Origin: a virus
Length of the DNA: 44,622 nucleotides
Virus record (IMG/VR): IMGVR_UViG_3300028534_000007
Direction: 5' to 3' (one strand)
Shown here: in pieces, positions 8,357 to 44,622 of the stretch
How positions within the stretch are numbered: position 1 is the first letter of the stretch
How the letters are laid out: each line of letters begins with the position of its first letter
Translations under genes and position numbers: made by a program
The notes under the pieces: generated by a model
What the model was told of the DNA's origin: nothing
Seen by the model: only the letters and a program-made list of their open reading frames with translations
Database searches by the model: none

Positions 8357-8395
8357 ATCCCTATCAAAATAAAATTTTTTTGAAAGGGATACGAA

Positions 8396-10844: not shown

Positions 10845-10863
10845 CTCTTCACTAATTTTAAAT

Positions 10864-10883
10864 GGGGCGAAATTGCCCCTTTT
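10864..10883 (+). terminator. Rho-independent terminator after the methyltransferase gene
   Basis: GGGGC, loop gaaatt, GCCCC, then TTTT. It lies 20 nt after the stop codon. Confidence 0.6.
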
Positions 10884-10953
10884 AAAAACACCCACACCCA
10901 CAATATTTAAATATCTAAAATCTAAATATTTAAGCCATTTAATTACTTGATTA

Positions 10954-10962
10954 TGATACAAT
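10954..10962 (+). promoter_or_regulatory. Possible extended -10 promoter (TGaTACAAT)
   Basis: TG-n-TACAAT lies 37 nt upstream of ATG 10999 and follows the terminator. There is no good -35. Confidence 0.3.
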
Positions 10963-10998
10963 TATGATGTAAAAACAATAAATGAAAAGGATTAAACT

Positions 10999-11841: not shown

Positions 11842-11844
11842 AAA

Positions 11845-12822: not shown

Positions 12823-13330
12823 AAGTTGTTATATTGGAATAGATGCAGGTAAGAAGGGAGTAATAGCTAAACTATATCAAGATAATACAATAGAAGTTTT
12901 CAAAATTCCTCTATTGCAAAATGAGAGAATAGATATAGAGCAATTTCTAAACATTATACAAGGAGATAGTGTAGTCGTTGCAATAGAGAAACAATTTATA
13001 AAAAAAGAGCAAGGGCATGGATTTACCATAGGGCGAAACTACGGAGAGTTATATGCCCTATGCCACATTAATTTTAAATCACCTCGCGATTTTAACCGTG
13101 TAATAGAAGTTCAGCCAACAGTGTGGCAAAGAGCGTTTCCCTTAGCTCCAAGAGGAGTTAAGAGAACAAAGCTACACCACATTAACCATGTGCTTAACCT
13201 CTACCCACAACTAAAGGGGCTACTCTTAAATAAGAAAGGAGATATCGTTGAGAGTCGCCATGACTACGCAGATGCTATCTTGATAGCCACATGGCTCAAA
13301 AAGCGACTATCTATCCCGAGTAAGAAATAA
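12812..13330 (+). CDS. RuvC-like Holliday junction resolvase
   Basis: YIGIDAGKKG, VAIEKQF and HDYADAILIATW fit the acidic catalytic pattern of the RNase H-fold resolvases. It is the last gene of the rightward arm. Confidence 0.65.
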   Translation: MENKSCYIGIDAGKKGVIAKLYQDNTIEVFKIPLLQNERIDIEQFLNIIQGDSVVVAIEKQFIKKEQGHGFTIGRNYGELYALCHINFKSPRDFNRVIEVQPTVWQRAFPLAPRGVKRTKLHHINHVLNLYPQLKGLLLNKKGDIVESRHDYADAILIATWLKKRLSIPSKK

Positions 13331-13414: not shown

Positions 13415-13433
13415 GTTACCTTTTAAAGGTAAC
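13415..13433. terminator. Palindrome at the convergence point of the two arms (candidate bidirectional terminator)
   Basis: GTTACCTTT-T-AAAGGTAAC overlaps the terL stop codon. No clear U-tract. Confidence 0.25.
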
Positions 13434-15092
13434 ACCCCTATATCCAATATTAGCCCCTTTTTCTTTACCTTGTTTTATTATTTCTCTATCCATAATTGCA
13501 ACTTCTGCTTTTTGTGTTGCTCTGTTTGCAAATTCAGATAGATAATTAACTCCAATCTCTAAAGAGTCCAAACAATCATCGTGTTCTAACTCTCCACCAT
13601 TCTCTATATAAGATAACTGATAAATAAGACTATGTTCTGCTCCAATCTCATCATAAATCCTATTGCTATCTTTGATAACTCTCTCATGAAAAATAATTCT
13701 GTGCTGATTAAAGAGAGGCTCAAGAGTGGTAATGATTCTTTCTATTTTGTTTTTAGTATTTTTAATTCCTATTACTCTAACTCTATATCCTATTAAGTCC
13801 ATTATCTTAGTTAGCAAAGCTCCAACTATCCCATCTCCAAAGTTATCCTCAATAACTACCTCTCTAACTCTAAACTTCTTACAGTCTCTTATTATCTGTG
13901 TTAAGTTCTCATCAGAATAGCCACCCTCTAAGCCGTCCACCTTGTGTATAAAAAATCTTCCTCCAACAGTAGAAACAATAGAGTAAGCAAACAAATCCTT
14001 TCCACGCCCCGATGGGTCAATAGAGAGTATTGTATATTCGCTTGTTGCACCAAACCCAACATCTCTATAATAATTATAATTGTCTTCAGGTCTCATGCCT
14101 TTAATAGATATAGAACTCCCTCTTTTGTTTCCAATAACTATATTAACAAGCCCATATCCCAACTTAAAGTTAGTGATTAGTATATCGTCCATACTAAGAG
14201 GGAAACGCTCTTTATCTGTTGGAACTCTTAACATAAACTGCATCTCAAACGCAGTTTTTCCCATTCCTAATCTTTTCTTTTCTATCTCTTCTAGTGGGAA
14301 ACGTTCATCTGTTGGCTTACCATATAAAGAGGGGTCTTGTTCTAGCCTTTGGTAGATATGAGGAGATAATAACCCTCTATATGCCTCTACTTCTTGCTTA
14401 TTGCGTGGAAATAATACAGGAGTAATAATATGTTTGTATTTCCTCTCCTCTCTTATTCTGTGATATATGCTATCCATGTGGTGGCGTGTTCCAAGGTAAC
14501 ATATAAATTGTTTTGCTCCTGCTGTAAGTAGAGCTTCAAATTCTGTTGTAATCTCTAATAAATTTTGTCTTTGGTTTGCTGTCCTAGCGTTTTTCTTTGT
14601 CTCTATATCATCGGCAATGATAATATTAGCCCTTGCACTGGTAATTGTCCCAGTTATCCCTAAGCTTCTAAGAGAGGGGTCTTGTGCTGGTTTTGCACCT
14701 CTAACATCAAAGCTTTGTGTTGATGTCCTTGCTCCTCCTCTTCTATCAGGTGCAAGAAACTTAAAAAGATATGTTCTGCTCATTACCATAAAACAAAATC
14801 TTACAAAGTTTTTTGCTTTAGTATCTGTTCCACTTACAACAAGCACCTTTAAATCTCTATTCTTAGCAAGTATCCAAAGAACAAAAATAGAGGTTATTAG
14901 AGACTTTCCTAATCCTCTAAACTGTTCTATAATTAGATACTCTTCTTTTTCGTATGCTCTTTGTAAATCTTGGGCTAAATATTTCTGTGCTGTTGTAATC
15001 TCACCTAAGCTAATCTCCTTGAATACGTAATTAACACACTTAGGAAAATCACTTAGTAACTCTATAACCTCATTACTATTTAAATCTCTCAT
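13416..15092 (-). CDS. terL: Terminase large subunit
   Basis: Walker A EQFRGLGKS and Walker B IIIADDIE, with a C-terminal nuclease-like half. It is the last gene of the late arm, as in T7 gp19. Confidence 0.9.
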   Translation of the reverse strand: MRDLNSNEVIELLSDFPKCVNYVFKEISLGEITTAQKYLAQDLQRAYEKEEYLIIEQFRGLGKSLITSIFVLWILAKNRDLKVLVVSGTDTKAKNFVRFCFMVMSRTYLFKFLAPDRRGGARTSTQSFDVRGAKPAQDPSLRSLGITGTITSARANIIIADDIETKKNARTANQRQNLLEITTEFEALLTAGAKQFICYLGTRHHMDSIYHRIREERKYKHIITPVLFPRNKQEVEAYRGLLSPHIYQRLEQDPSLYGKPTDERFPLEEIEKKRLGMGKTAFEMQFMLRVPTDKERFPLSMDDILITNFKLGYGLVNIVIGNKRGSSISIKGMRPEDNYNYYRDVGFGATSEYTILSIDPSGRGKDLFAYSIVSTVGGRFFIHKVDGLEGGYSDENLTQIIRDCKKFRVREVVIEDNFGDGIVGALLTKIMDLIGYRVRVIGIKNTKNKIERIITTLEPLFNQHRIIFHERVIKDSNRIYDEIGAEHSLIYQLSYIENGGELEHDDCLDSLEIGVNYLSEFANRATQKAEVAIMDREIIKQGKEKGANIGYRGVTFKR

Positions 15093-15496
15093 TTACTACT
15101 TTTTAAAGCCTCTAAAATGGGGTCTGTGTGCCGGGCTGTTCCTGTTCTCTCTTCTAGTTCTATAATCTTAATAGCGTATTCTATTGCTATTACTATACTA
15201 GAGTTCTCTATTGTATCCCCCTTTAGTAGCTGATTATAAACTAACTCTACACTTCTTTTAGCAATTAAAAAGACTATCTCACCTATTTTGAATCCATAAT
15301 CATCTATTACCCCTTTTATATCCCTACTATTCCAAACCCTATTTTTCCTATTTTCTCCTACTATCTCCATTCTGTTTAGCACCCTCTTAACTCTTTGGTA
15401 AGATTGGCTAACCAATATATCATCTAAAATAGGGGTTCTAATAAGCTTTTCAAGCCCTTTTACTAACACAGCCTTTAAGAAGTCCCTCTCTATCAT
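15089..15496 (-). CDS. Hypothetical protein, positional candidate for terminase small subunit
   Basis: 135-aa ORF overlapping the terL start (ATGA). The call rests on position only. Confidence 0.35.
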   Translation of the reverse strand: MIERDFLKAVLVKGLEKLIRTPILDDILVSQSYQRVKRVLNRMEIVGENRKNRVWNSRDIKGVIDDYGFKIGEIVFLIAKRSVELVYNQLLKGDTIENSSIVIAIEYAIKIIELEERTGTARHTDPILEALKSSK

Positions 15497-18400
15497 TTAA
15501 GCCCTCCTATTGTCGCATTTAATGCTTCAATTCGTTCTTGTTCGCTTTGTGGTTCTTTTGCGTATTCTGTTATTAGTTTCCCCATAAAGAGTGGAACACT
15601 CATAACTTGTAGCAAGTTCTTATACTCTCCTCCCAGTGCCTCGTGTGGTGCATTAACTAAGTTTTCTAACACTCCTAAAACGGGGAATACATTACCAATT
15701 TTAGTCTCTCTATTAGGGTTAAAAATATCATTAGCCATCTGCAGTAATGCAATATGTGGCAACCCCTCAATAACACGCTCAATAAACACCTCGTCTTTTT
15801 TTTCCTCTCTTTGGTTTACAAAATCTCTAATAGTTAAAGCTATTGATGTGGAGACAAACATCATTTGAAATTTAAAAATGCTCTCACTATCAAAAGAGTA
15901 TAAATCCCTTAACAGAAGATTATCAAAGGATTGGACAGGAAAACTTAAAAGGGTCATTAGGCTTTTTAAAAGTGGGTTTCTGATTATAAAGAGTGGCATA
16001 TCTCCAATATTAGGCTTCCCAACCCATGAAGTTTGAAAACTCCTCATTGTGGCTCTAAAAACTTCTCTCTCTTCCTTAGTCCACTTATCAAAATTCATAG
16101 AGTTATCATCTATCTTTTTAAAAGCTCCTCTTAAAATCTTCTCTTTATCAGGTGTAAGCCCTAAAGTCTCAAGTCTCCTTTTGTTTAATCTATTTCCTTT
16201 GAAATGGTCTTTTAACCTGTTTAGGTTTGGCTCAAGGTTAAAGAGGTTTGCTAAATCGTCCAACGCTGGTAGCTGATTAAAGAAGAAAGTTATTCTTTGC
16301 TGTGCTGTTAGTATTCTATCTAGTGTGTCTATAACTTTCCCACCTATTGTAAAATCTTCCATATAATAAAGAGGGTTTTTAAGATGCTCGTCTGCTAATA
16401 CTCTATGATACCCATAACCTAATTCTTGAGCCATTTCACGAACTCTATTAGGCATTTTGCTAAACTCTCCCTTTGCTAACTCTCTAAAAGCCTTAAAACT
16501 CTTTCCAAAACTTCCATTCATTAAGGCTCTTGCACTAGCAGGGATTAGCTCTTGTAATGCACTAATACCTGATAAGTGGAGTAATTGGGCTACTGTTGCC
16601 TGACGTAGTAAATTGAAAAAGTCCCATAACCTTTTATTTTCTATATCTGTTACGGGTTTTCCTAAAATCATATTAGCATAATCTTTTATATCTCTTAGTA
16701 AGTCAATATCTCCACCATGCTCTTTGAATTCATTTTCTACCCTCTTAAGATAGTTTGTGATATTTGTTATCCCTTTAATTCCAAAAGCATAGTGTCCTAG
16801 TGCGATATTAGAATACCTATTCATAACGCTAAAAGCGTTAGTATCTACAAAGTCCACCATTTCCAATCTCTTACCACCAACTACAAGGGGTTTAATATTA
16901 AAGTCTATTGGTATCCTAAACTTAGCCCTATTAAAAAAGTCATCAACATTTTCCACCTCGTTAGGAGTAAATAGTTCATCCTCTTTCATAGCCTTGATAA
17001 ATTTATCACTCTTACCATAGGCTAACAATTGCTTAGCATATTTTTCTGCATCTTTTATATCTATATCTTTCCCAAACTCTCTTTTAAATCCCCTCTTAAT
17101 TGCTTCCCCATACCACTTAACAACCCTTTCTCTATCTGCTTTTGATAATTGTGCTACAAGGTCGTATGTGTGTGGGTTGTGAAACCTTGGGAAATAATCT
17201 TTTATCTTTCTAATACTTTTCATTCCATCAACATTGGCATCCACCATAGCTTTATATATATCATCATAAAATTTGTCAAAGGCTTTCTTAGCTTTTAGAT
17301 GATGTTCTGATAGTTGGCTAAAATCTCCTTTAGTGTATGCTCTCCCAATAGTATTATAAAACTCCTCTCTAAACTTCATGTGTTTTAGGGGGTTAAGACT
17401 TTTAAACCCTACAACCTTTTTATAGTCCTCTATGATAGGTGCTAGTTTTGAAAATAGTTCAGCCTGAAATCTTGCCTTAATGGTCTCTTTTATGTCTCCT
17501 GCTCCCTCTTCTGCTCCTCTTTCCATTAGAGAGTGCAAGTTATCGGTTAATATTTTCCCTAAAGTTTTTGTGTGCTTAAACGCCTCATCACTAAGGCTAT
17601 TTAATTTTTCAAAATAACCCTTAGTTCCCCCAACAATTCCGAAAGTTTCCCTTATTAAATTCTTTGGGCTTTTTGCTTTTTCTTTGGCTCTTTGCAGTAT
17701 GTCGCTTATTCCTTTTCTATATTTTATGCCTAATACACCAATAGCTAAAACAGCTAATACATCCAAAGGGCTCTCCCTGTCTGCTCCATCCCCTGCAAAT
17801 AAATCCTCATTGCTCCCAATCAATACGGCTGTTACTGCTCCAAGCCCACCCTTTTTAAATAGTTCTCTTACTTCGTCCTCTGTAAGCTCTCTTCCTTCGT
17901 ATTTTTTAAGTTCTTCTTTCGTCATAAATAGCCCATCATCAGACGCTATAATGCCCCCTGATTGATAGCTCTTAATGTTCTTATACCTTGGTTTGTAGTC
18001 TTGGGGTGCAAATTCCATCATTGATTCTAGCACAATTATATTACCTATATATTCCTCTATATCTTTATTTGTTGGCTTATGTTCCATAATTCTTAGTATA
18101 GAAGATTTAGACATTTTAATGTCTTCTCCTTCTAGCCCCATTATTTTTAACTGATTATTTCTTTCTTTTTTGCTCATTAGGGACAAGTCTATTACTAGGT
18201 CTCTTAGTGGGTGTTCTTTGTAGTTTTCGTAGTCCTTATATAGGGAAGGTTTCTTATATTTCTCTTTTTTAGATGCTTTATTTTTCTTACTGTATCCAAT
18301 CAATTTTCTTGTTGTTCCTTCTACAATTTCTACATCTATATAGTCACTTTTGCTAAAGTCTGCTAATCTCTTATAGTCTTTTCCTTCTAACCTATCCCCT

Positions 18401-19275
18401 ACTAAATCTTTTAATGTTTGTCTCCAAGTCTCATCACTAAACATTCTTCTTATAATGTCGGTTCTATTTGCTTTTAAATCAGTAGAAAACCTCATGGGTT
18501 TTCCTACTATCGACGAAACCACAATATCGTGAGGCTTGCTATTTGGGAGTTCAAATCTTCTCGTAGTCCAATCAATTAAATTATCTTTTGTCTCTTTAAC
18601 TGCTCTTACATCTTTAAAGTCAATTAGACTTGTAGCCCCACCTAAAAAGCCACTTAACAATAACTCTCCTATTGTATCACCTATATCTTTTTGTTTTTGT
18701 GTGGCTAAAAAGCTAAGGCTATCAAAAGCACCATATAAACCCATATCAATAGTAGCACCAACACCAAAACGCCCCATCGTTCCAATAGCGTTAAATCTAC
18801 TTAGTGCAAGCTCAGGAAGTATTATAGATGGGATAAGTAGGGGGTCGGTTAAGATATTAGTAGCAATGTTCACACTAGCCCAAAGTGTAGAGCCTTCACT
18901 AACTAACCCCGCTTCTCTCTCTCGTTTTTCTCTCTCCTTAATTGCTTCTAGTCTTCTATTAAAATCCTCTTGATTTTTTGCAACCCTTAAAGCAGGAATA
19001 TTATTTATATTTATCTGGTGTTCTCTTGCTAATTCTAAGTTACCTTTGTTTCCTAACTCTCTTTTAAATGCTCTATCTTCTACCTCATCGGAAAATAGTT
19101 CTTCAACACCTTGTGTTACATCTCTCCAACTATTAAGGGAATTATCTAAAATAATACTTGCTTTATCAAGAGCGTTCAAATCTTCATATTTTCCTACATC
19201 TAAAATCTGTCTTAGGCTGTCTTGTTGGTTTATCTCTGTTCCTGTGGAGTCGTAAAAGGGGTTTGTAAATGCCAT
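15493..19275 (-). CDS. Large internal virion (ejection/core) protein, T7 gp16-like, without a recognisable transglycosylase domain
   Basis: 1260 aa. REAGLVSEGS...TDPLLIPS and Gly-rich hydrophobic segments resemble gp16 AEAGLGAKLS...VDPLSYVP. Later blocks (FSVMNRYSNIALGHYAF) also resemble gp16. Size and position next to the terminase genes fit. Confidence 0.55.
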   Translation of the reverse strand: MAFTNPFYDSTGTEINQQDSLRQILDVGKYEDLNALDKASIILDNSLNSWRDVTQGVEELFSDEVEDRAFKRELGNKGNLELAREHQININNIPALRVAKNQEDFNRRLEAIKEREKREREAGLVSEGSTLWASVNIATNILTDPLLIPSIILPELALSRFNAIGTMGRFGVGATIDMGLYGAFDSLSFLATQKQKDIGDTIGELLLSGFLGGATSLIDFKDVRAVKETKDNLIDWTTRRFELPNSKPHDIVVSSIVGKPMRFSTDLKANRTDIIRRMFSDETWRQTLKDLVGDRLEGKDYKRLADFSKSDYIDVEIVEGTTRKLIGYSKKNKASKKEKYKKPSLYKDYENYKEHPLRDLVIDLSLMSKKERNNQLKIMGLEGEDIKMSKSSILRIMEHKPTNKDIEEYIGNIIVLESMMEFAPQDYKPRYKNIKSYQSGGIIASDDGLFMTKEELKKYEGRELTEDEVRELFKKGGLGAVTAVLIGSNEDLFAGDGADRESPLDVLAVLAIGVLGIKYRKGISDILQRAKEKAKSPKNLIRETFGIVGGTKGYFEKLNSLSDEAFKHTKTLGKILTDNLHSLMERGAEEGAGDIKETIKARFQAELFSKLAPIIEDYKKVVGFKSLNPLKHMKFREEFYNTIGRAYTKGDFSQLSEHHLKAKKAFDKFYDDIYKAMVDANVDGMKSIRKIKDYFPRFHNPHTYDLVAQLSKADRERVVKWYGEAIKRGFKREFGKDIDIKDAEKYAKQLLAYGKSDKFIKAMKEDELFTPNEVENVDDFFNRAKFRIPIDFNIKPLVVGGKRLEMVDFVDTNAFSVMNRYSNIALGHYAFGIKGITNITNYLKRVENEFKEHGGDIDLLRDIKDYANMILGKPVTDIENKRLWDFFNLLRQATVAQLLHLSGISALQELIPASARALMNGSFGKSFKAFRELAKGEFSKMPNRVREMAQELGYGYHRVLADEHLKNPLYYMEDFTIGGKVIDTLDRILTAQQRITFFFNQLPALDDLANLFNLEPNLNRLKDHFKGNRLNKRRLETLGLTPDKEKILRGAFKKIDDNSMNFDKWTKEEREVFRATMRSFQTSWVGKPNIGDMPLFIIRNPLLKSLMTLLSFPVQSFDNLLLRDLYSFDSESIFKFQMMFVSTSIALTIRDFVNQREEKKDEVFIERVIEGLPHIALLQMANDIFNPNRETKIGNVFPVLGVLENLVNAPHEALGGEYKNLLQVMSVPLFMGKLITEYAKEPQSEQERIEALNATIGGLK

Positions 19276-22355: not shown

Positions 22356-22868
22356 TTAAAACTCTTCTAACTCTTCTAAAAGGTTATCTAATTCCTCAAC
22401 GTTATCTTCAATATTTGTTACTTCTATCATATTGTCAAGATAATCAATCGCAAGATAATCCCAAAGTAATGGGAAAAACTCGCTTAGGCTATTCTCTGCT
22501 TTATCAGCTAAAACGAATTTAAGTCCTCTCTCTTCTGGAACAACTACAACCATGATATTCTTATTCTCTTTAACTGTAAATATAGTTGGAATGATTGGAA
22601 TATCTTTTATTATAATTCCTCTCGTCTCTGTATCTTTAATCTTACTATATTCAATATTTCTTCTTTCTAACTCTTCTACTAGCATAGCCTTAAGCTCACC
22701 CATAGTATCACACTTAATTACTTCTATTTCATCATCTTCATCTACTACACCTGTTATAGCTACACAGTTTCCATTGAAACAAAGTCTTTCTATTGCCCCT
22801 ACTGTATGAAGATACATAAAGCCTATCTTTTCGGTAAACATAGTTTCTATTTTGTTACTCTCTATCAT
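22356..22868 (-). CDS. Strongly acidic hypothetical protein (first gene of the autonomous cassette; DNA-mimic candidate)
   Basis: 170 aa. By eye there are far more D/E than K/R residues, with an acidic tail EDNVEELDNLLEELEEF. It has a GAAAAGGA SD and its own consensus promoter. Confidence 0.6.
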   Translation of the reverse strand: MIESNKIETMFTEKIGFMYLHTVGAIERLCFNGNCVAITGVVDEDDEIEVIKCDTMGELKAMLVEELERRNIEYSKIKDTETRGIIIKDIPIIPTIFTVKENKNIMVVVVPEERGLKFVLADKAENSLSEFFPLLWDYLAIDYLDNMIEVTNIEDNVEELDNLLEELEEF

Positions 22869-22902: not shown

Positions 22903-22931
22903 TATTATAGCGGTTTTTGCACTAAATGTCA
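22903..22931 (-). promoter_or_regulatory. Consensus sigma70 promoter (TTGACA, 17 nt, TATAAT) for the acidic-protein cassette
   Basis: On the minus strand, TTGACA at 22931-22926 and TATAAT at 22908-22903. Confidence 0.65.
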
Positions 22932-22950
22932 ATCAAAAACCATGTTTTTG
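22932..22950. promoter_or_regulatory. Operator-like palindrome abutting the -35, with further half-sites
   Basis: TCAAAAAC-CATG-TTTTTGA at 22932-22950. Additional half-sites are CATGTTTTTGATT at 22884-22896 (between the -10 and the start codon) and TCAAAAA at 22963-22969. Confidence 0.45.
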
Positions 22951-26804: not shown

Positions 26805-27260
26805 TTATTGTTTTATTTTTAATTCTCTTCTAATGGATAAAATTTCTCTAATTTTACCAACATCAAAACAAGGACACATTTTATTACCTGCTATTTCCCT
26901 ATGCCCCAAAATCTTATCTATTCCAATTCCATATCTTTTTCTTAAATCCTCTAAAAGAGATATCAGGGATTTAAATTGTTTCTCATGAAACTTTGACTTA
27001 ACATCCCCTATCATACATATAGATATTTGTCCTTTATTATGCCCTTTAATACTTGCTGGGTCTAGCTTTAAGTCCCTTCCTACCTCTATTTGCCCAACAA
27101 GAGGTTCAATAAAAGTATCCTTGTTTATCCACCCATTTAAGATAACAAAGTGATATCCTATATCTTTAAAACCCCTCTTTAAATGCCACTCTCTTATAAG
27201 TGAAGCACTCCCAAAGCTAGACGCTGAACAATGGATATTTATTCCCTTAATTGTTCTCAT
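26805..27260 (-). CDS. Endolysin, N-acetylmuramoyl-L-alanine amidase (T7 lysozyme gp3.5-like, Amidase_2/PGRP)
   Basis: 151 aa. INIHCSAS, IREWHLKRGFKDIGYHFVI, GHNKGQISICMIG and ILGHREI..NKMCPCFDV are colinear with T7 lysozyme. Confidence 0.92.
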   Translation of the reverse strand: MRTIKGINIHCSASSFGSASLIREWHLKRGFKDIGYHFVILNGWINKDTFIEPLVGQIEVGRDLKLDPASIKGHNKGQISICMIGDVKSKFHEKQFKSLISLLEDLRKRYGIGIDKILGHREIAGNKMCPCFDVGKIREILSIRRELKIKQ

Positions 27261-34592: not shown

Positions 34593-36722
34593 TTATCCTC
34601 TCTTTGGCTGTGGTTCAACTTCTAAAGTTAGGTTTATTAATTCAATATCTAGTGGCTTATCCTCTACGCTCTCTATTATTATATCGGTGTTAAAATTATG
34701 CCCGTTTAATACATGTTGCTTGTTTGGATATGGATTTGGAAGAGAATTTATAATATAACTGTCTGTTTCTCTTTCTACTTCTATCTTGTAATCCCCATTA
34801 GTTACAAATAATTCTATTCTCTTATACCAAAATTTAAGCCACGTCTTACCCTCTCCTAATAGGTTTTTAGGTAGGTAAGCCCTTGATATAAAGTTCCTAT
34901 CATCATCTCTATAATTATTTGTATCCTCATTTATTAGGTCAATAGCATATATTCCATCTGCTCCGACTAATATTAATTTACCCTCTTGCACTTCTATATT
35001 ATATATCTGTGTGCCAATGTTCCAAAGATAACAATCTCCATCTTTGATAACCACTACATTGTTAGAGGTGCTATCTAAGAGAAATAAATAATTTCTTTCT
35101 GGATATACTGCTATATCCTTAGCCCCTTTTATTAAGCCTCTGAAACTCTGTGATATTTCCCTACTTGCTCCATCTGGACTAGTGGCGTAAAGCCTATTAT
35201 CTGCAAGGTAGTAAACTATATTTTGACTAACTATCGCATGAGATATATTTAGCTCTGACACCTTAACAATATAATTTGTGTCCTCTCCTGTGTCTCCTAC
35301 TAGCCTATTAATATAAATCCCATTAGTAGTAAAGATATAAAGCCCATATTGAAAAGTTCCAACCTTTAATATTTTCTCTCTCTTAGATAGGCTCATTCCA
35401 TAAAATTTAGGATCGTTAGATAACTCTGCTCTTGCTGTGGTATAAAAGAAGTTAATAGCCCTATCCTCTATTATAGCACTTAAAGAGATACTATCAGAGG
35501 TAACAAACCCTAAACGCCCATTATAATAAACTGCATCTTGTATATAATTATTTATAAATGGTGGGTGTGGTGCTGTGGCGTGTTTTCTCTTTAGCTCCAT
35601 AAAAGATAAACTAAAATCATCTAAAGAGGTGCGATATAGAGTTAGTGGCATAGTTCTATTGTCTATCTCTCTATCTTCTGAAGGGTCGGCACACTCTATC
35701 CACTTTCCTCTTTCATGTTCTACAAAGTATCCAGTCCCGTTTTCTTTAACTTTAACTATGGCGTAACTAGAAGGCTGGGGGTTTGGGCTAGGTGGAGGCA
35801 ATTTATTAGGCTCTACAAGCTTAACCCCTCCTAATTGCGTATCTGGTTCGTCTCTAGTGACTTCTGCTAAATAGTAATCATTGTATCTGTGCGACCATTC
35901 CCAAACCTCATAATAGGGCTCTCCGTCATTTTTTTCATAATAAAACCATTCATAGGAGGTGTTATCAAAATTTTGTGGTAAATCCTCCATTCTTTCCACT
36001 TCTCTATAAATAAGCTTTAAAGCCTTATTCCCAAAAGTATCAGATACCCTAGTTTCAGTATCTGCCCCTTTTAGCATAGATAAAACGCTTCCAAATTTAG
36101 AGGTGTTTGGAATTAGTGCAAAGTCCTCAATAACCTTTATTGTATCATCTCTTTTAGTCCAATATGTAGTCCCGCCAACAGTTAGAAAATAAGTGTAGCC
36201 ACCGTTTAGAGTAGTTGATTCTTTAGCCCACACTAAACGCTTACGCTTATAAAATACTGCGGGGCTGTGTTCTATGGGTTTCATTTTTACCTGTTTTGTG
36301 CGGTTGATAATAAAAGTAGTATCCCTTATTGTTACGCACTTAAATACCTCTTGTGGTGTCATATCTGCTGGAAATTGTAGATAGTTATCTAAATCTACAT
36401 CACTATTTCCAAACGCCCTATAATTTAAATTCTTTTGGTTTCCTTGGTTATCTAATATATATATAACCCCTTGGCGTGTTTGTGCATCTATGTCTTTATA
36501 TGTAATTGCTATGAGGTAAGTCTCTTTATTATCTCCTCTATCATACGTATATATACAACTATCCTCTCTAAGGGAGAGATTAGAATATTTTTTAGCTCCG
36601 TTTCTCCTCTTTAATAGAAAATCCTCTACTAACATATTCTCTATTAGCTTACTCTCATTCTGCCCTTGTCTGCTAATTGGTAGTGTGCTTGTAGAGGCAG
36701 GAAAAACATTTTTTACTATCAT
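34593..36722 (-). CDS. Tail tubular protein B (T7 gp12-like nozzle)
   Basis: 709 aa. VFKCVTIRDTTFIINRTKQV matches gp12 LRMVTVADYTFIVNRNVV, and FINNYIQDAVYYNGRLGFVTSDSISLS matches gp12 SSINDVFFFRNRLGFLSGENIILS. Confidence 0.85.
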   Translation of the reverse strand: MIVKNVFPASTSTLPISRQGQNESKLIENMLVEDFLLKRRNGAKKYSNLSLREDSCIYTYDRGDNKETYLIAITYKDIDAQTRQGVIYILDNQGNQKNLNYRAFGNSDVDLDNYLQFPADMTPQEVFKCVTIRDTTFIINRTKQVKMKPIEHSPAVFYKRKRLVWAKESTTLNGGYTYFLTVGGTTYWTKRDDTIKVIEDFALIPNTSKFGSVLSMLKGADTETRVSDTFGNKALKLIYREVERMEDLPQNFDNTSYEWFYYEKNDGEPYYEVWEWSHRYNDYYLAEVTRDEPDTQLGGVKLVEPNKLPPPSPNPQPSSYAIVKVKENGTGYFVEHERGKWIECADPSEDREIDNRTMPLTLYRTSLDDFSLSFMELKRKHATAPHPPFINNYIQDAVYYNGRLGFVTSDSISLSAIIEDRAINFFYTTARAELSNDPKFYGMSLSKREKILKVGTFQYGLYIFTTNGIYINRLVGDTGEDTNYIVKVSELNISHAIVSQNIVYYLADNRLYATSPDGASREISQSFRGLIKGAKDIAVYPERNYLFLLDSTSNNVVVIKDGDCYLWNIGTQIYNIEVQEGKLILVGADGIYAIDLINEDTNNYRDDDRNFISRAYLPKNLLGEGKTWLKFWYKRIELFVTNGDYKIEVERETDSYIINSLPNPYPNKQHVLNGHNFNTDIIIESVEDKPLDIELINLTLEVEPQPKRG

Positions 36723-37300
36723 CTATCTAGCCCCCAAAAAGAACGCCATGAATAGTTACAATTTTTCTTAGAACCTAGAAAGTTAAGCCCTTGCTCATCT
36801 ATGTTTCTTTGTATTGCATTAGCTTTTTTTCTAATCCAATTATCTTGTAAGCTAGATAAGGTATCTTGGATATTACCACCTAAAGTAGCCCTAAGTTCCC
36901 ACGCTGTTTGAGCTGTCACTAACTCTATAAAATATGGTGGTGCAAGGTCTAAGGGCAAATCCTCAATGAGTATCAATCTTGTTCCACTATCAAACTTAAA
37001 ACTTTGTTTTTTAATGTCATAGAGTTTATTATCTATGTTCCTATATTGTAGTTCTCTTCTTAGAGGGTTTCTGAAACTTAAAATACCGTCAAGATGTATT
37101 TCTCCATTGATGTCTGGTTCTAATACCCTATTAGAGGTATTCCAGCCCCAGCCATTAGCTTCTAGTTCTAGCCTTACTTCATCTATCTTATTAACTACCC
37201 TCTGGGCGTCTCTATCTGTGTTTATAGTTATGTCATCTACCAAAGGTAAGCTAAGAAGTTCTAAAACCTTATTTACCTCTCTAAGAAGATTAAAAGCCAT
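36719..37300 (-). CDS. Tail tubular protein A (T7 gp11-like adaptor)
   Basis: 193 aa. VNKVLELLSLPLVDD...AQRVVNKIDEVRLELEANGWGWN matches gp11 VNDILASIGEPPVS...[20 protein letters not shown]. Confidence 0.85.
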   Translation of the reverse strand: MAFNLLREVNKVLELLSLPLVDDITINTDRDAQRVVNKIDEVRLELEANGWGWNTSNRVLEPDINGEIHLDGILSFRNPLRRELQYRNIDNKLYDIKKQSFKFDSGTRLILIEDLPLDLAPPYFIELVTAQTAWELRATLGGNIQDTLSSLQDNWIRKKANAIQRNIDEQGLNFLGSKKNCNYSWRSFWGLDR

Positions 37301-37303: not shown

Positions 37304-38194
37304 CTACACTGCACTTCTTATCTCTGTTAATTGGCTTGGAACTAGCACACCTAAACCAATAAAAAACTTACCTAGTAGTAAATTCCCTAAATAGTCTGGA
37401 AGATAATCTATACTAGTTCTAATCCCATTATACAAGTCTAGTCTTCCTGCTACATCTTCCCCATAAAGGAAAGCTACTGTTTTCTCTGACTCTCTCTGCT
37501 GGTTAAAGGTATTAGAAACAATAATTTGCTTAATTCCAAATCTTGCAAGAACATCTACATAATCTCTATTTGCAAAATATTTACTTAGTAAAATGTGGGA
37601 GTAATTAGTTGCATTTGTCACAATAGTTACATTATCCCAAATATATCTATCATGCCTATTGTCCATTGCCTCAATAATAGCTAATACTATCTGATTTCCT
37701 CTCTCCTCTTCGTCTGTTGCTGTTGCGATTTGGGGTCTTACTACTACTTGAGCGTTACCCATTCCAACTTTTCCGTTTGTGGACATTGCTGTTTGGATTG
37801 TGTCTAAAATCCTCATATCATACTTTTGTGCTAGAATATATCCAATTTTTTGTGAGTATTTATCTAGTATGTTGAAGTCATTTAAGTTTGTTTGGTTCTC
37901 ATCTGCAAAGATAGAGAAGTATGTAACATTATCATCATAATTTAAAAACACATGGTCGGTTTCAATTGTGCTTGTATCTACTTGTGTTCCTGCTGTGTGT
38001 TGTTGAATATCTGCTAAGTTAGGATTTCCAACTAAAGGGAAACTATAACCTAACCCACTAACAGAGGGGCTTCTGTTAATTGTCTCTACTAGTTTCAATC
38101 TATCCTCGTAAGCTACAATAGTTCTATTTCTAAAATAGAGCAGTATGTCCTCATTAGAGAGGGTCTTATTGTTGTTTTGGGTATCAAATGCCAT
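37304..38194 (-). CDS. Major capsid protein (T7 gp10-like)
   Basis: 296 aa. SGLGYSFPLVGNPNLADIQQHTAGTQV...YSQKIGYILAQKYDMRILDTI is colinear with gp10 SGKSAQFPVLGRTQAAYLAPGENL...YTSQLGESLAMAADGAVLAEI. Confidence 0.82.
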   Translation of the reverse strand: MAFDTQNNNKTLSNEDILLYFRNRTIVAYEDRLKLVETINRSPSVSGLGYSFPLVGNPNLADIQQHTAGTQVDTSTIETDHVFLNYDDNVTYFSIFADENQTNLNDFNILDKYSQKIGYILAQKYDMRILDTIQTAMSTNGKVGMGNAQVVVRPQIATATDEEERGNQIVLAIIEAMDNRHDRYIWDNVTIVTNATNYSHILLSKYFANRDYVDVLARFGIKQIIVSNTFNQQRESEKTVAFLYGEDVAGRLDLYNGIRTSIDYLPDYLGNLLLGKFFIGLGVLVPSQLTEIRSAV

Positions 38195-39562: not shown

Positions 39563-40345
39563 TCAATATTTCTTCCCTGTAAAACTTCTTCTAGCCTTTG
39601 CCATTACTGCATCTCTAAAGGCTCTATCACTGCTAAATCGTGGATCCCTCATTGCTTGTTGTAACTCTTTCTCGCTCGTAAATTTGTCTTGACTGCTTCC
39701 CATTCTTTGAGTATATGGATTGAATAATTGTGAGTTTGGTTGTGCTTGGTAACCCTCATACAACATCTTGGATATTTTAGCAAGTAAAGAGGGATTATTT
39801 TCATTTAGATTCTGTATCATGGCTTTTTCTTGTTCGGAGAAATAATCCCCACTAAACAACTCATTAGTAAACTCTACTATCTCGTTTCTTTGTTCTCCTA
39901 GTATCTCCAAAGCCTCTAATGTTTTCTGTTTTGCCTCTAACTCTTTTAGTGCCTTAGAACTCTCTATATTGGATTTAACTATGTCTATAACCTCATCAGT
40001 ATAACCTAACTCTTTTAACTGCTGTCTATCATTATCATCTAAATATGACTTCTGGGATAACTTCTCTTCTAATATCTCACTCAAACTCTTCTTTGGGTTT
40101 TCTAGCTGTTCTACTTTTTGCTTTAGTTGGTGGAACTCGTTTAATTTTTGATAGTGAGTTTTCTCTAACTCCTCATAAGACTTTTTAAGGTCTTCAACAC
40201 TTTTAAAATTACGGAAATTAAACCCCCCATCACTTTTGATATCTGTTTGGTTATCTCTATTAGTTGGTTCATTGATTGGTTCTTGTTGAGGTTGAGTTTG
40301 TTGTTGTGCTGTTTGTGTAGTTGTTGGTGTCCCTTGTTTATCCAT
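39563..40345 (-). CDS. Putative scaffolding protein
   Basis: 260 aa with a Q/T-rich N-terminus and a long acidic coiled coil. It lies between the portal and capsid genes, as T7 gp9 does. Confidence 0.6.
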   Translation of the reverse strand: MDKQGTPTTTQTAQQQTQPQQEPINEPTNRDNQTDIKSDGGFNFRNFKSVEDLKKSYEELEKTHYQKLNEFHQLKQKVEQLENPKKSLSEILEEKLSQKSYLDDNDRQQLKELGYTDEVIDIVKSNIESSKALKELEAKQKTLEALEILGEQRNEIVEFTNELFSGDYFSEQEKAMIQNLNENNPSLLAKISKMLYEGYQAQPNSQLFNPYTQRMGSSQDKFTSEKELQQAMRDPRFSSDRAFRDAVMAKARRSFTGKKY

Positions 40346-40754: not shown

Positions 40755-40951
40755 TTCTCCTTTTCTTCATTTTTTAATTTTGCTCCATACTTACCATGGC
40801 TTGGGTCTATTTTTCTATCCTTATAAACCTTAGACGCGTCATAGACTTCACTAGATAGAGCAATGGGGATATTAGTATCTTTTTTCTTTTTAGTTATCTC
40901 TTTTATATAGTCTATCAGCTCTTTCTTAGTCATCTTTTCTAGTTCTTTCAT
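40745..40951 (-). CDS. Hypothetical small lysine-rich protein
   Basis: 68-aa ORF whose start overlaps the portal stop (ATGA). Confidence 0.45.
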   Translation of the reverse strand: MKELEKMTKKELIDYIKEITKKKKDTNIPIALSSEVYDASKVYKDRKIDPSHGKYGAKLKNEEKEKWK

Positions 40952-42417
40952 TGTCTAGCTCCTTGTTGTGGTTGATTTTCTAATTGTTGTTGTATCATCG
41001 CTTTTTGTATTTGGGTTTGCTCTTCTGCTTGTATCTCCTCTTTATCTTTTAATACCTCATCAGTATTAACGCCTATAACATCAGCATAAGCCCTAAACAC
41101 CTTTTCACTAGATATAAATTGTTGTGCCTCTCCTAATTGATATATAGCCTCTAAAGGGACTAAAGCAGAGAGTTTATTTAATTTATCAAGGTTTCGGACA
41201 TCACCGATACCATTAATAAATTCTACCTTAACATCTTTTAGCTTTTTGTCTATCTTCATTTTAGATAGTAGCCAATCAAAAACGGGATTTTGTAGAGAGT
41301 GGGCTATTGTAATATAAAAGCCTCCAAATTTTTCACTCATCTCTTGTATTAGGGTTTGTATCTCGTATGCTGTGGTTTGTCTCTCTCTGATTACTCCAAC
41401 ACCTCTTAAAAAAGACGCTGATAATCTTCTCTCCACATTCTCTAAGTTTTGATACACCACATTCATATTAACTTGTTGAGGGCTATATGCTACTAAATCA
41501 CCCTCCATACCTACTATAAAATCTCCACTTTTGGAGTTCTTAACCTCTTCCAAATTATCAGCGATAACAGATGCAGGATTTACAAGATGTAATACTTTAG
41601 CCCCTTGCTCTGCACTGTCTCCCATTCCAACAGCTAACTTATCATATAGTTGTAAATCTCCTAAATGTCTATAACAGTATCCATATGAGTAGTTAAACCC
41701 TATCTCTTCGTATAGTTGGATAGGATATAATAAAATCTCTTTTACGGTTCTAGTCTTCTCTACTACCTCAAAATCTTCTATATACTCTTTTATTTGGTAG
41801 CCTTTATCTACTTTTGTTATCTCTATATAGAATGGATAAACATCTGGGACGCTGGTAGGATCGTATCTATTGCTTAATCCCTCTATATATTTTACATACG
41901 GTGTGTTATCATCTGGAAGTATAATTATCTGTTTTTCTATTATTATCTTATACCATTCACCATTTTCACGCCTCATAACTACATATTCATCTAGCCTATA
42001 AAAAGAGGGGTTGTTACTAGTAAAATCAAGCAACACGTTACCAGTAATAAGCAAATGCTCTATTACTTGAACCATATAACCCCTAATATTATTTTCCTCT
42101 GCAAACAGTCGTATTTGCTCTTCTAGTGCTATTAATAGGTTTGTAGCTGTTTCGTCTTTAACCTCTGAGTTGAGCTTAAAAAAGTTTGTTCCAAAAGGGA
42201 AGATTGATTTAACCAATTTACTAGCTAAGGTTGAGACTAAATCAGCTCCTAATGCTTGGTTTCTTATAATAATATCATCTTCGGTTAGTGTATCATATAG
42301 AGTAGATAGTGTATATTTTTCAATCTCTTCTGCTACATCTATATATCTCTCTCTATCTATCTTATATCTTTCTAAGTCTTTTAAGAACCCAGATTGTATA
42401 TATATGCTCTCTTTCAT
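40948..42417 (-). CDS. Portal (head-tail connector) protein, T7 gp8-like
   Basis: 489 aa. LERYKIDRERYIDVAEEIEKYTLSTLY...LGADLVSTLASKLVKSIFPFGTNFFKL matches gp8 YERLKNDRAPYETRAQNCAQYTIPSLF...GARGLNNLASKLMLALFPMQTWMRL. ITGNVLL, YGYCY..LGDL and SGDFIVG blocks are also shared. Confidence 0.9.
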   Translation of the reverse strand: MKESIYIQSGFLKDLERYKIDRERYIDVAEEIEKYTLSTLYDTLTEDDIIIRNQALGADLVSTLASKLVKSIFPFGTNFFKLNSEVKDETATNLLIALEEQIRLFAEENNIRGYMVQVIEHLLITGNVLLDFTSNNPSFYRLDEYVVMRRENGEWYKIIIEKQIIILPDDNTPYVKYIEGLSNRYDPTSVPDVYPFYIEITKVDKGYQIKEYIEDFEVVEKTRTVKEILLYPIQLYEEIGFNYSYGYCYRHLGDLQLYDKLAVGMGDSAEQGAKVLHLVNPASVIADNLEEVKNSKSGDFIVGMEGDLVAYSPQQVNMNVVYQNLENVERRLSASFLRGVGVIRERQTTAYEIQTLIQEMSEKFGGFYITIAHSLQNPVFDWLLSKMKIDKKLKDVKVEFINGIGDVRNLDKLNKLSALVPLEAIYQLGEAQQFISSEKVFRAYADVIGVNTDEVLKDKEEIQAEEQTQIQKAMIQQQLENQPQQGARQ

Positions 42418-42572
42418 CTATTACTATCCAAATCTATAACAAATATTTGGCTCTGATAACTCTTTTTTTTCTTCTTCTTGGTTTGATAAGTGTTTACACT
42501 CTGTAAACCTTGCTCTGTGCTAGTTTTAATCGTAGTAGTATTTGGCTGTGGTGCTGAAAATATGCCACCCAT
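42414..42572 (-). CDS. Possible 52-aa protein coupled to the portal gene, not in the ORF track
   Basis: My translation: MGGIFSAPQPNTTTIKTSTEQGLQSVNTYQTKKKKKKSYQSQIFVIDLDSNR. Its stop overlaps the portal ATG (ATGA), and its start follows the upstream stop (TAAAATG). Confidence 0.35.
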   Translation of the reverse strand: MGGIFSAPQPNTTTIKTSTEQGLQSVNTYQTKKKKKKSYQSQIFVIDLDSNR

Positions 42573-42573: not shown

Positions 42574-42747
42574 TTATACCCTCTCTTTCTCTAATTTTGC
42601 GATTAGTAGTCTTATATATAATATAACTTCTTGATTTCCTTGTAATCTCACAAACTCACTCTTTTTAGTTCCCTTTTTTAGTGGTATGTGGTCAGGAAAT
42701 TTTTTTAATAGCTCTTTTTCTAGTTTTTTTAGTGTTCCATAATCCAT
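42574..42747 (-). CDS. Possible 57-aa protein, not in the ORF track
   Basis: My translation: MDYGTLKKLEKELLKKFPDHIPLKKGTKKSEFVRLQGNQEVILYIRLLIAKLEKERV. It fills an otherwise empty gap, but no SD is visible. Confidence 0.3.
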   Translation of the reverse strand: MDYGTLKKLEKELLKKFPDHIPLKKGTKKSEFVRLQGNQEVILYIRLLIAKLEKERV

Positions 42748-42831
42748 ATAGTTATTATATAGTGTGAAGTTTAAGAAAGTAGGAGAGGAGAAAATTAAGA
42801 AGATACCCCTCTAAAAGGGATATTTAAGGAT

Positions 42832-44127
42832 TTAGAATAATTGTTTAGTGGTTTTAAATCCTGCTGTGTTTCCGTTGGGGTGTCCGCCACCTTGATAGCT
42901 CTCTGCTAATGCTGTGGCTTTTCCTTGAATGCTTCTAACTCCATAAAACCAAATATCTTTTTCAGGGTGCTTGTTTTGATTTATAGCTATCTCTATGTTT
43001 GGATTTGCTTTAAGTGCTACATTTAAAGTATCACTTAGATATATCTTTGGGACATCTCTAAAAAACAGTGCAGATACTCCGTCAATGATTCCAACAGTAA
43101 ACTCTTTTGATAGCTCCTCTACTTTTTCTATATACTCCTCATATAAAGGCTTTCCCAACCCTATAAGGGTATTAACTCTATTTTCTTTTATTGCTGTTAG
43201 AATTGTGTTATCTGACGCTATATCAGCAGATTTAACGGCATGATATATAATATCTGTATCAGGGTTATACTTCTTTATAAATAGGTCTCTATCTTTTATA
43301 TATTTTACTAGCTCCTCCCCATGTCTGAGAGAGTTATTTTTATATCTATCTAACCAAAATAAAGAAGTTCCACATTCCTTTTCACTATAATAATACTCTT
43401 TTCCCTTCGGAGTATATGTTAGTCTGTGGTGGTCATATATCTCTATTTTACCTCTTTGACTTACTAGAACATTATTATACTGCTCCTCTGTTGGTGCTAT
43501 ATCTATAAAGATTATGCTATCGCCTCTAAAAGAGTTAATCATCTCTACCAGTTTGCTAGACGGTGGATTAAGTTTGCTGTCTGATTCTACCCATAAAGGG
43601 AATTTTATAACATCTTTGTTCCTGTCTAAGAAGACATATTGTGTTGTGCTATCATCGAATAAAGCTTTAGCCAAACTATACCCACCTCTCCCATCATTAT
43701 CAGCACCATCTACAACAACCATTGTAGAGTGTGGAGTTATAGTCAATGTTTCGTTTTGTGCCTCTATTAGCTCTTTCGCAGTAACTGGCTCTATATCTAT
43801 CTTGCTGTGTGATGTGATACTAATAGTAACCTTATCGTAGTCGAACTTAAAAGAAACAGTAAACATAACCTTAAATTCCCCATCTACAAAGATTTTAGTT
43901 CCAACTATTGGGTTAAAGATCTCTTTCTTTAGGTCAAGAATATCATTATAGAAGTTCTCCAATTGATTGTGTATCTCTCTATCTGTATAAAGAGAAATAT
44001 CCAAAGCATTATCATACTCATTTAATTTGCTAATCACTTGGTATTTAGCTCTTAAAAAAAGCTCATCATTTCCAACAAACTGGTTTTCTCTTTTAATTAC
44101 AAACTCATGTTTTCTGCTCTTTGCCAT
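42832..44127 (-). CDS. DHH/DHHA1-family phosphoesterase (NrnA/RecJ/GdpP-type catalytic core) with a unique 130-aa N-terminal domain
   Basis: 431 aa. Motif I/II-like HSTMVVVDGADNDGRGGYS, IIFIDIAP, motif III IEIYDHHR, DHHA1 motif QGGGHPNGNTAGF. AAAAGGA SD. It is the first gene downstream of promoter 44189-44161. Confidence 0.8.
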   Translation of the reverse strand: MAKSRKHEFVIKRENQFVGNDELFLRAKYQVISKLNEYDNALDISLYTDREIHNQLENFYNDILDLKKEIFNPIVGTKIFVDGEFKVMFTVSFKFDYDKVTISITSHSKIDIEPVTAKELIEAQNETLTITPHSTMVVVDGADNDGRGGYSLAKALFDDSTTQYVFLDRNKDVIKFPLWVESDSKLNPPSSKLVEMINSFRGDSIIFIDIAPTEEQYNNVLVSQRGKIEIYDHHRLTYTPKGKEYYYSEKECGTSLFWLDRYKNNSLRHGEELVKYIKDRDLFIKKYNPDTDIIYHAVKSADIASDNTILTAIKENRVNTLIGLGKPLYEEYIEKVEELSKEFTVGIIDGVSALFFRDVPKIYLSDTLNVALKANPNIEIAINQNKHPEKDIWFYGVRSIQGKATALAESYQGGGHPNGNTAGFKTTKQLF

Positions 44128-44160
44128 TTTTAATCCTTTTCAAGTTTATTTTATAACCGT

Positions 44161-44189
44161 ATTATACATAAAAAATTTTTGTTTGTCAA
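44161..44189 (-). promoter_or_regulatory. Consensus sigma70 promoter (TTGACA, 17 nt, TATAAT) driving the leftward arm
   Basis: On the minus strand, TTGACA at 44189-44184 and TATAAT at 44166-44161. The spacer AACAAAAATTTTTTATG is related to those of the promoters at 4796 and 8328. Confidence 0.65.
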
Positions 44190-44220
44190 TAGGAGTTTAT
44201 CTTTTATTTTGTTTTTTTTT

Positions 44221-44622
44221 GAAAAAGTAGCCAGAGAACCCAAAAAGGTAGCCACTTTTTTCAAAAAGGTAGCCAACGCAAACGCCTATTTTTCGGGGGG
44301 CTTAATGGGGTAGCTACTTTTTTGAGCTAAAAAAAGGTAACCAGAGAACCAAAAAAAGTAGCCACGGCACAAAAAAAAGGTAGCCAATTCCAAATCTTAA
44401 ACGAAATAATTAATTTTTAGCCACTTTTCTTAAACTTTTAAACTAATTTGCCCCTTAGCTACCTTTTTGGCTACTTTTCTGAAAAAAAAAGGTAGCCAAC
44501 GCAAACGCCTATTTTTCGGGGGTTTACTCTATGTTGCACTAAAAAAGGTAGCCAATTTTGACACCCCCAAAATTAATATTTTATTTTTAGTGGATTTTAA
44601 GCTAAAAAAGGTAGCCAACGCA
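44221..44622. repeat. Iteron field, left half: AAAA(A)GGTAGCCA 12-mers in both orientations plus 37-nt long units
   Basis: Forward copies near 44222, 44242, 44263, 44329 (GGTAACCA variant), 44351, 44371 and 44482. Inverted copies near 44311, 44457 and 44469. Long units at 44263-44300 and 44486-44522. The 45-nt block 44242-44286 is identical to 241-285. Confidence 0.85.
44496..44622. repeat. Right copy of the exact 127-bp terminal duplication
   Basis: Identical to 1-127. Confidence 0.9.

Follow-up and report, generated by a model that had tools for sequence, protein, structure and literature searches.

A DHH-DHHA1 phosphoesterase gene with a lineage-specific N-terminal domain in a small T7-like phage genome

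In 2025 the COG2404 proteins with DHH and GGGH motifs were grouped as the NrnB family (PMC12709177; Myers et al. 2025). The NrnB proteins tested so far, including the Helicobacter pylori enzyme, are 3′-5′ RNA exonucleases, and all of them process RNAs of 2-4 nt; for activity on long RNA the C-terminal tail has to exceed 100 aa, and forms without this extension prefer short substrates (PMC12709177). Cyclic di-AMP (c-di-AMP) was not cleaved by the tested proteins, that of H. pylori among them (PMC12709177). Here we analyse a viral gene located at 42832..44127 on the minus strand of IMG/VR record IMGVR_UViG_3300028534_000007 (44,622 nt; 'the window' denotes this whole stretch). The gene starts with ATG and encodes 431 aa followed by a stop codon, an orphan N-terminal domain being fused to a DHH-DHHA1 phosphoesterase. 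We give about even chances to the explanation that the product is a Mn-dependent, NrnB-like exonuclease, which acts on dinucleotides and very short oligonucleotides in nucleotide recycling and oligonucleotide clearance, and which carries a lineage-specific N-terminal domain.

Viruses are already known to carry DHH enzymes, and the novelty of the gene is limited to its domain architecture. A role against the cyclic-nucleotide signals of host defence was predicted for phage DHH phosphodiesterases as early as 2021 (PMC7824862), and a preprint by Profeta et al. from July 2026 described such enzymes across the viruses of bacteria, archaea and eukaryotes (10.64898/2026.07.21.739742). Nine phage DHH enzymes were tested in that study, and Ph_DHH_3B was singled out together with mimivirus R106 as blocking 3′3′-cyclic GMP-AMP (3′3′-cGAMP) signalling; the catalytic mutant of Ph_DHH_3B inhibited the pathway non-specifically. 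Purified R106 degraded many nucleotide messengers, and its knockout caused no fitness defect (10.64898/2026.07.21.739742). In type III CRISPR loci that use S-adenosylmethionine-AMP (SAM-AMP), the DHH-family nuclease NrN adjoins the CorA effector, and mutation of its DHH motif abolished immunity (PMC10600005). The statement of an earlier note on this DNA that signal destruction had so far been described for other folds is therefore out of date. The enzymes with such folds, Acb1 (2H), Apyc1 (metallo-β-lactamase) and the AcrIII-1 ring nuclease (DUF1874), are unrelated to the window protein in fold and share with it a hypothetical role only; all significant sequence and fold matches of the window protein are DHH-family proteins.

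The translation and the alignments show every catalytic motif of the family, in the canonical order. Motif I reads D140-G-A-D143-N-D145-G146, motif II I206-F-I-D209 and motif III D232-H233-H234. The earlier note had listed the hallmark DHH and DHHA1 motifs, all of which were found; motif IV (D279-R-D281) was absent from its list. The DHHA1 motifs are R398-S399 and G413-G-G-H416-PNGNT-AG, the latter being the GGGHxxxxAG of the note with a corrected spacing, as five residues and not four separate the His from AG. In an alignment of 41 family sequences D145, G146, D209, D232-H233-H234 and D281 are invariant, and the 11 closest sequences show no variation at D140, D143 or D145; motifs I-IV, RS and GGGH form the invariant columns of the two family alignments. 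Motif I has the form D-x-x-D-x-D in the subgroup of the window protein and H-x-x-x-C-x-D in most members of the wider family. In the comparison of the window with the related locus L001, dN/dS (the ratio of non-synonymous to synonymous divergence) was ~0.2 across the whole gene. Judged by its sequence, the product is a DHH/DHHA1 phosphoesterase with an intact active site, and is apparently active.

Family membership concerns the core of the protein, residues 131-431. The PHROG 4771 profile ('DHH phosphoesterase') matched residues 131-428 with E = 6.4e-22. When 1.84 billion representative proteins were searched exhaustively with phmmer, 63 relatives were obtained, nearly all of them 270-340 aa long, and all but one (P0002) align solely to residues ~131-431; the nearest relatives of the core are phage and metagenome proteins of ~270-330 aa. 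The Pfam DHH family was matched by 27 of 41 aligned relatives, and Pfam DHHA1 (PF02272) by 28 of the 41. Searches of other collections were less productive. PADLOC gave no useful match for the protein, a word-indexed protein search returned the query and P0002 alone, and the family profile found seven proteins in the same collection. Tblastn against GenBank phages gave one weak match, EBPR siphovirus 1 gp6, whose neighbours are all hypothetical proteins, and megablast of half the window against phages gave none. No relatives were found in genome contigs, in metagenome contigs, or in viral contigs searched with P0003, the closest relative outside the lineage; a viral-contig search with alignment A3 and a search with the portal protein returned loci L007 and L008 alone, again.

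The AlphaFold model of the protein (mean predicted local distance difference test score, pLDDT, 80.9; core mostly >90) has the two-lobe α/β fold of the superfamily. The DHH lobe, residues 131-317 (43177..43737, minus strand), carries motifs I-IV and was modelled with pLDDT mostly 86-97. It is followed by a long, ordered inter-lobe helix, residues 318-339 (43111..43176, minus strand; pLDDT >90), and by the DHHA1 lobe, residues 340-431 (42835..43110, minus strand; pLDDT 92-97), with R398-S399 and G413-G-G-H416. Foldseek assigned a probability of 1.0 to ~40 DHH-family PDB chains and 40 viral models. The PDB matches include 6mtz, an archaeal PAP phosphatase, NrnA, PggH, Rv2837c and RecJ cores, and the viral ones a Klosneuvirus model (template modelling score, TM, 0.74), a phage PaBG model (0.72) and the phage AR9 'oligoribonuclease NrnB' (0.64). 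The viral models fitted better than the solved structures, with TM up to 0.74 and a root-mean-square deviation (rmsd) of ~4 Å over ~315 columns. Together with the PHROG match and the invariant catalytic columns, the fold bears out the DHH/DHHA1 assignment of the earlier note. On sequence and model grounds the core is a divergent stand-alone DHH-DHHA1 enzyme.

Viral DHH-DHHA1 proteins, comprising PHROG 4771, jumbo phages PaBG, AR9 and RP12, Erwinia phages and giant viruses including mimivirus with R106, were the best structural matches overall. Viral DHH groups 4 and 5 have an ordered inter-lobe helix, as does the model of the window protein (10.64898/2026.07.21.739742). The identity to these viral proteins is 15-20%, and they come from jumbo phages and giant viruses, whereas the window is a 44.6-kb T7-like podovirus.

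The earlier note had named the NrnA, GdpP and RecJ clades as possible positions for the protein. With the profile of the 41 sequences, the first solved structure was H. pylori 6mtz (5e-20), the runners-up being 9r7o ('DHH family', 5e-14), NrnA (3e-11), a c-di-AMP phosphodiesterase (3e-11) and SH1221 (1e-10). The profile of the 11 closest sequences also placed 6mtz first (2.5e-9). Matches of NrnA-type and GdpP-type proteins to the family profile extended over the full length or the DHHA1 lobe. The ranking is thus 6mtz first and then proteins of the NrnA and GdpP types, and of the clades named in the note RecJ was far weaker. NrnB-type proteins of COG2404 (Bacillus subtilis YngD, H. pylori and Campylobacter jejuni NrnB; PMC12709177, PMC10570053) have the same two-lobe layout of DHH and DHHA1 (GGGH) in ~300 aa. 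In addition, two relatives of the window protein, P0014 and P0068, carry the IMG name 'oligoribonuclease NrnB/cAMP/cGMP phosphodiesterase (DHH superfamily)', which corresponds to COG2404. NrnB proteins of clades B and C, the short-substrate ones, likewise have no long C-terminal tail, the extension of >100 aa being a feature of clade A. The window protein differs from NrnB in that the sequence similarity is remote, and in being phage-encoded and having the 130-aa N-terminal domain.

The NrnA, CnpB (Rv2837c), PggH and GdpP proteins share the fold and the catalytic motifs, and their DHHA1 lobe was matched by the family profile at 1e-8 to 1e-11. Their activities cover nanoRNA, pApA or pGpG, pAp and in some cases c-di-AMP. 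For most NrnA entries the DHHA1 lobe alone aligns by sequence. The linker of this group is flexible, whereas the window model has a long helix at this place. GdpP has transmembrane helices, PAS and a degenerate GGDEF domain before DHH-DHHA1; none of these is found in the window protein, where the N-terminal 130 aa have no Pfam match and the best PAS fold match had a probability of 0.13.

A RecJ-like 5′-3′ single-stranded DNA exonuclease, acting in replication or alongside the YqaJ-type recombination module of the phage (resecting ends or removing flaps and primers, for instance), seems improbable to us. The window encodes a YqaJ-type exonuclease at 9162-10043, RecJ cores are among the Foldseek matches, and the long ordered helix between the lobes is a feature that RecJ also has; catalytic core and motifs are alike as well. 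Relatives of the gene adjoin YqaJ and SSB in locus L009 and PolA and primase in L002. Weak, sub-threshold matches to recJ models were obtained for 10 (TIGR00644) and 8 (NF053576) of the 41 relatives; the NrnA model was matched by 15 of them, and the window protein itself matched neither recJ model. RecJ structures matched the 41-sequence profile at 5e-5 to 4e-3 and with partial coverage only, as against 5e-20 for 6mtz and 1e-10 to 1e-14 for the other stand-alone enzymes, which makes them 10^4 to 10^15 weaker than stand-alone nanoRNase-type proteins; with the 11-sequence profile there was no RecJ match at E ≤ 0.01. The core of ~300 aa has the size of NrnA and NrnB, whereas the matched solved RecJ chains have 424-757 aa, and no domain resembling an oligonucleotide/oligosaccharide-binding (OB) fold was detected, including by Foldseek of the N-terminal domain. 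The RecJ analogue suggested in the earlier note for an 'Erf/YqaJ pathway' is therefore the less supported alternative. Of that pathway YqaJ was confirmed, and Erf was recognised by neither PHROG nor Pfam.

Very improbable, in our view, is the idea that the protein is another DHH small-molecule phosphatase, such as a 3′-phosphoadenosine 5′-phosphate (pAp) phosphatase, an exopolyphosphatase or a pyrophosphatase. The archaeal PAP phosphatase 8a8k was the second-best Foldseek match, NrnA enzymes are bifunctional and also act as pAp phosphatases, and the sole matches in a direct phmmer search of the PDB were marginal ones to family II pyrophosphatases (E = 0.023). Pyrophosphatases and exopolyphosphatases carry DHHA2 in place of DHHA1, however, and the GGGH signature of the window protein is that of DHHA1, the domain found by Pfam in the majority of the aligned relatives. 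Pyrophosphatase structures aligned poorly with the model (TM 0.22-0.34, rmsd ~14 Å), and a pAp phosphatase would be of no obvious benefit to the phage.

We provisionally regard the core as an NrnB-like (COG2404) enzyme of the short-substrate type, on the strength of its sequence; the type is suggested by the missing long C-terminal tail, the protein ending 15 residues past GGGH without any extension of >100 aa. By analogy with characterised relatives, the DHH lobe would hold two Mn2+ ions through Asp and His of motifs I-IV, and the DHHA1 lobe, with R398-S399 and GGGH, would hold the nucleotide substrate. The lobes would close on a very short substrate, and nucleoside monophosphates would be released. 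We infer that the substrates would be dinucleotides and oligonucleotides of ~2-5 nt, because the long basic C-terminal tail that NrnB needs for long RNA is missing. In the infected cell such an enzyme might carry out the final breakdown of nucleic-acid fragments to reusable mononucleotides and remove short oligonucleotides.

The gene context of the relatives is mixed evidence. More distant relatives follow PolA and a primase-like protein in L002, YqaJ and SSB in L009, and a helicase and Rep_O in L010; their position within replication and recombination modules fits a function in nucleic-acid metabolism. The closest relatives (L004, L005 and L006) lie among small unannotated open reading frames (ORFs) near divergent junctions or contig ends. 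The DHH gene has been retained in a relative that has diverged to 39-44% protein identity (L003), and such persistence speaks for a stable function rather than for a sporadic insert.

Several observations weigh against an NrnB-like nanoRNase. The setting in L004-L006 is also typical of host-takeover and counter-defence genes. The protein itself matched neither DHH nor DHHA1 of Pfam (PF01368, PF02272) even at E ≤ 1, nor did it reach the NCBIfam thresholds, for which reason membership is derived from PHROG 4771, transitive homology and the fold. The COG2404 label comes from the two IMG names, which belong to distant relatives (25-32% identity), and not from a phylogeny, and the H. pylori protein 6mtz is no more than a candidate NrnB. 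According to the authors of the NrnB study, substrate range cannot be read from sequence in the DHH superfamily (PMC12709177). At least one phage DHH enzyme and mimivirus R106 interfere with 3′3′-cGAMP signalling (10.64898/2026.07.21.739742). Finally, the N-terminal domain is left unexplained by an NrnB-like function.

This domain, residues 1-130 (43738..44127, minus strand), is lineage-specific. Its predicted order is one strand, then two helices and then three strands, with a linker of low confidence (residues 113-126) after them. The earlier note had described about 130 N-terminal residues without recognisable relatives, and this was borne out: 62 of the 63 phmmer matches start at ~131, the sole exception being P0002, a protein of 431 aa with 89% identity. 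We found the domain only in the window, L001 (the locus of P0002), L007 and L008. It had no meaningful match in Pfam. Modelled alone with AlphaFold it gave a pLDDT of 71.5 and a predicted TM score (pTM) of 0.63, and Foldseek against the PDB gave no match better than E = 0.03 or TM 0.3. Resemblances to the BlaR1 sensor, PsbP, PAS and START were not significant and were treated as noise.

We considered whether the N-terminal extension was an artefact of a wrongly assigned start codon, and rejected this possibility. No Shine-Dalgarno sequence precedes M137, the 136 upstream codons are open in a genome of 33.5% G+C, and codons 1-53 are biased towards synonymous changes, with five synonymous and no non-synonymous differences between the window and L001. 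Over codons 1-130 dN/dS was 0.2. These substitution patterns clearly point to a domain that is translated and under purifying selection.

Within the domain, residues 54-100 (43828..43968, minus strand) form a variable cassette. It occurs as two deeply diverged alleles, one in the window and L008 and the other in L001 and L007, with near-identical flanks. Between the window and L001 or L007 the cassette has dN = 0.35 and saturated synonymous sites, whereas dN = 0 in codons 1-53 and 101-136. Between the window and L008 dS is 0.04 in the cassette and 0.04-0.2 in the N-terminal domain, as against 0.8-0.9 in the catalytic core. The two alleles and the contrast in dS between domain and core lead us to conclude that sequences were exchanged by recombination; the comparison indicates that the N-terminal domain has been exchanged among phage variants as a module, by recent recombination. 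The closest relative outside the lineage, P0003 of L003, shares 44% identity with the core, begins with the DHH lobe itself and has a similar ribosome-binding site, from which it follows that the N-terminal domain was added within the lineage of the window phage. Possible roles of the domain are targeting, regulation and oligomerisation.

The exchange of the cassette between variants is one of the points that would suit a counter-defence enzyme, as module swapping is frequent in genes at host-virus interfaces. According to this explanation, which we consider possible but unlikely, the enzyme is made early and hydrolyses the cyclic di- and trinucleotides of cyclic oligonucleotide-based antiphage signalling systems (CBASS), the cyclic oligoadenylates of type III CRISPR, or SAM-AMP; the orphan domain might tune specificity or bind a host factor. 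A more elaborate version, in which the core destroys cGAMP, cyclic oligoadenylates or SAM-AMP and the recombining domain serves as a novel module for targeting or sensing, docking for instance onto the host complex that produces or receives the signal, appears somewhat more doubtful still. The closest relatives lie among small ORFs at transcription-unit starts, and the gene itself has a perfect promoter beside the non-coding control region of the genome. The role was already predicted for phage DHH enzymes (PMC7824862), enzymes of the same fold, Ph_DHH_3B and R106, act against 3′3′-cGAMP (10.64898/2026.07.21.739742), and NrN provides the precedent in SAM-AMP type III CRISPR loci (PMC10600005). 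Against it, only one of the nine tested phage DHH enzymes was singled out and its catalytic mutant inhibited non-specifically, the R106 knockout had no fitness defect (10.64898/2026.07.21.739742), and the tested NrnB proteins left c-di-AMP uncleaved (PMC12709177). The more distant relatives, moreover, belong to replication and recombination modules. With the prediction of 2021 and the preprint of 2026 the anti-signal hypothesis is no longer new; it is a reasonable possibility, backed by nothing specific to the window gene.

The early expression assumed in this explanation was read from the promoter alone. The sigma-70-type promoter TTGACA-17-TATAAT at 44161..44189 (minus strand) matches the consensus hexamers at 12 of 12 positions and is identical in L007, so that the consensus host promoter reported in the earlier note is indeed present ahead of the gene (44189-44161 in reading direction). 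Perfect TTGACA-N16-18-TATAAT sites occur three times in the 44.6-kb window, against 0.05 expected: at 1302-1331 (plus strand), 22904-22932 (minus strand) and 44161-44189 (minus strand). Two of them flank the control region. The third, at 22904-22932, precedes the ORF 22356-22868 and a run of genes that ends in the internal virion protein and the terminase, and thus an equally perfect promoter heads late-type genes. The promoter fits strong transcription by host RNA polymerase and is no proof of early expression; the term 'immediate-early' used in the note goes further than this. A Shine-Dalgarno sequence, AAGGA, can be read at 44134..44138 (minus strand), 6 nt ahead of the ATG, and the context AAAGGATT-AAAA is common to the start of the window gene and that of the short homologue in L003.

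The downstream boundary of the gene is weak. A terminator scan found a hairpin at 42803..42823 (minus strand), 9 nt past the stop codon, with nine pairs of which three are G-C; this weak terminator candidate has a folding energy of -9.6 kcal/mol and z = -1.2 relative to shuffled sequence, that is, no extra stability. In L008 the hairpin after the DHH gene is kept and is followed by no T-run. From the DHH gene it is 415 nt to the start of the portal gene on the same strand, with this unremarkable hairpin in between, and the separation from the structural genes claimed in the note is correspondingly weak. 'First leftward gene', another of its expressions, is meaningful relative to the control region and not otherwise, the genome assembly being closed.

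Viral DHH-DHHA1 enzymes are common, and the sole reported knockout, that of mimivirus R106, was without phenotype. The window gene is a compact object of study: its active site is intact, the T7-like genome is small, and the natural short relative P0003, which has no N-terminal domain, permits a direct comparison for the role of this domain. If the enzyme is a nanoRNase, it would show that small phages themselves supply the enzyme that completes nucleotide recycling. If it is a signal degrader, counter-defence would be extended to a fold already suspected of that role. Were the orphan domain a targeting or sensing module as well, the enzyme would be the first of the DHH family with an anti-defence function shown in the natural setting of a phage, with a new accessory domain. 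Either outcome would be useful but incremental.

Bases 1-127 of the window repeat exactly at 44496-44622, and L007 is continuous across the junction; we therefore regard the window as a closed assembly of a complete phage genome. A length of 127 is a common maximum k-mer length of assemblers. The structural genes are T7-like: on the minus strand the portal gene lies at 40948-42417, and the other products are a scaffold-like protein (39563-40345), the major capsid protein (37304-38194), tail tube proteins (36719-37300 and 34593-36722), an internal virion protein (15493-19275) and the large terminase (13416-15092), which is 34-38% identical to Autographiviridae-type terminases. A plus-strand arm, 1587-13330, encodes a helicase, the YqaJ-type exonuclease, a DNA methyltransferase, a KilA-N protein, a primase and a RuvC-like resolvase. 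Among the ORFs of at least 90 aa on both strands, none was recognised as a DNA polymerase or a phage RNA polymerase, and no tRNA genes were found in the window. An amidase-type endolysin is encoded at 26805-27260 (minus strand), and 28 of 30 loci of its 31-39% identical relatives are in Bacteroides or Bacteroidaceae genomes. We did not adopt Bacteroides as the host on this basis, in view of the low identity and of the consensus sigma-70 promoters and Shine-Dalgarno sites, which are not typical of Bacteroidota.

A non-coding region of ~1.5 kb (44190-44622 and 1-1301) lies between the DHH gene and the plus-strand arm, which point away from it in opposite directions. Of the 20 matches to AAAGGTAGCCA in the window (1.3 expected), 19 are in this region; they occur on both strands, frequently with a spacing of 21 nt. 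The 37-nt unit AAAAAGGTAGCCAACGCAAACGCCTATTTTTCGGGGG is also present there in several copies, exact or nearly so, and the region is conserved in L007. The repeats may represent replication-origin iterons or sites bound by a regulator.

Between the DHH and portal genes there is a gap of 84 nt followed by two tiny ORFs, of 57 aa (42574-42747, minus strand) and 52 aa (42414-42572, minus strand; with a run of six lysines). Both have the same length in L001 and L007, and neither matches a family. Ahead of the 57-aa ORF, the sequence TTCTTAAACTTCACAYTATATAATA at 42748-42790 (minus strand) is near-invariant across the window, L001, L007 and L008, whereas the sequence just before it is variable. It contains TATAAT and no good -35 element. 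As TTCTTAAACTTCACAYTATATAATA occurs once in the genome, we rejected it as a repeated phage-specific promoter; it may be a promoter or a regulatory site for the structural operon.

In the plus-strand arm the ORFs 1587-2579, 2629-4680, 5184-6524 and 8396-9178 have no assignment. The second of these encodes 683 aa and has no match in PHROG, Pfam or PADLOC. A 39%-identical homologue lies at 249-2270 (minus strand) of L003, where it is arranged head-to-head with the short DHH gene at a distance of ~107 bp. The ORF at 2629-4680 is an orphan partner gene that is conserved in this group of phages.

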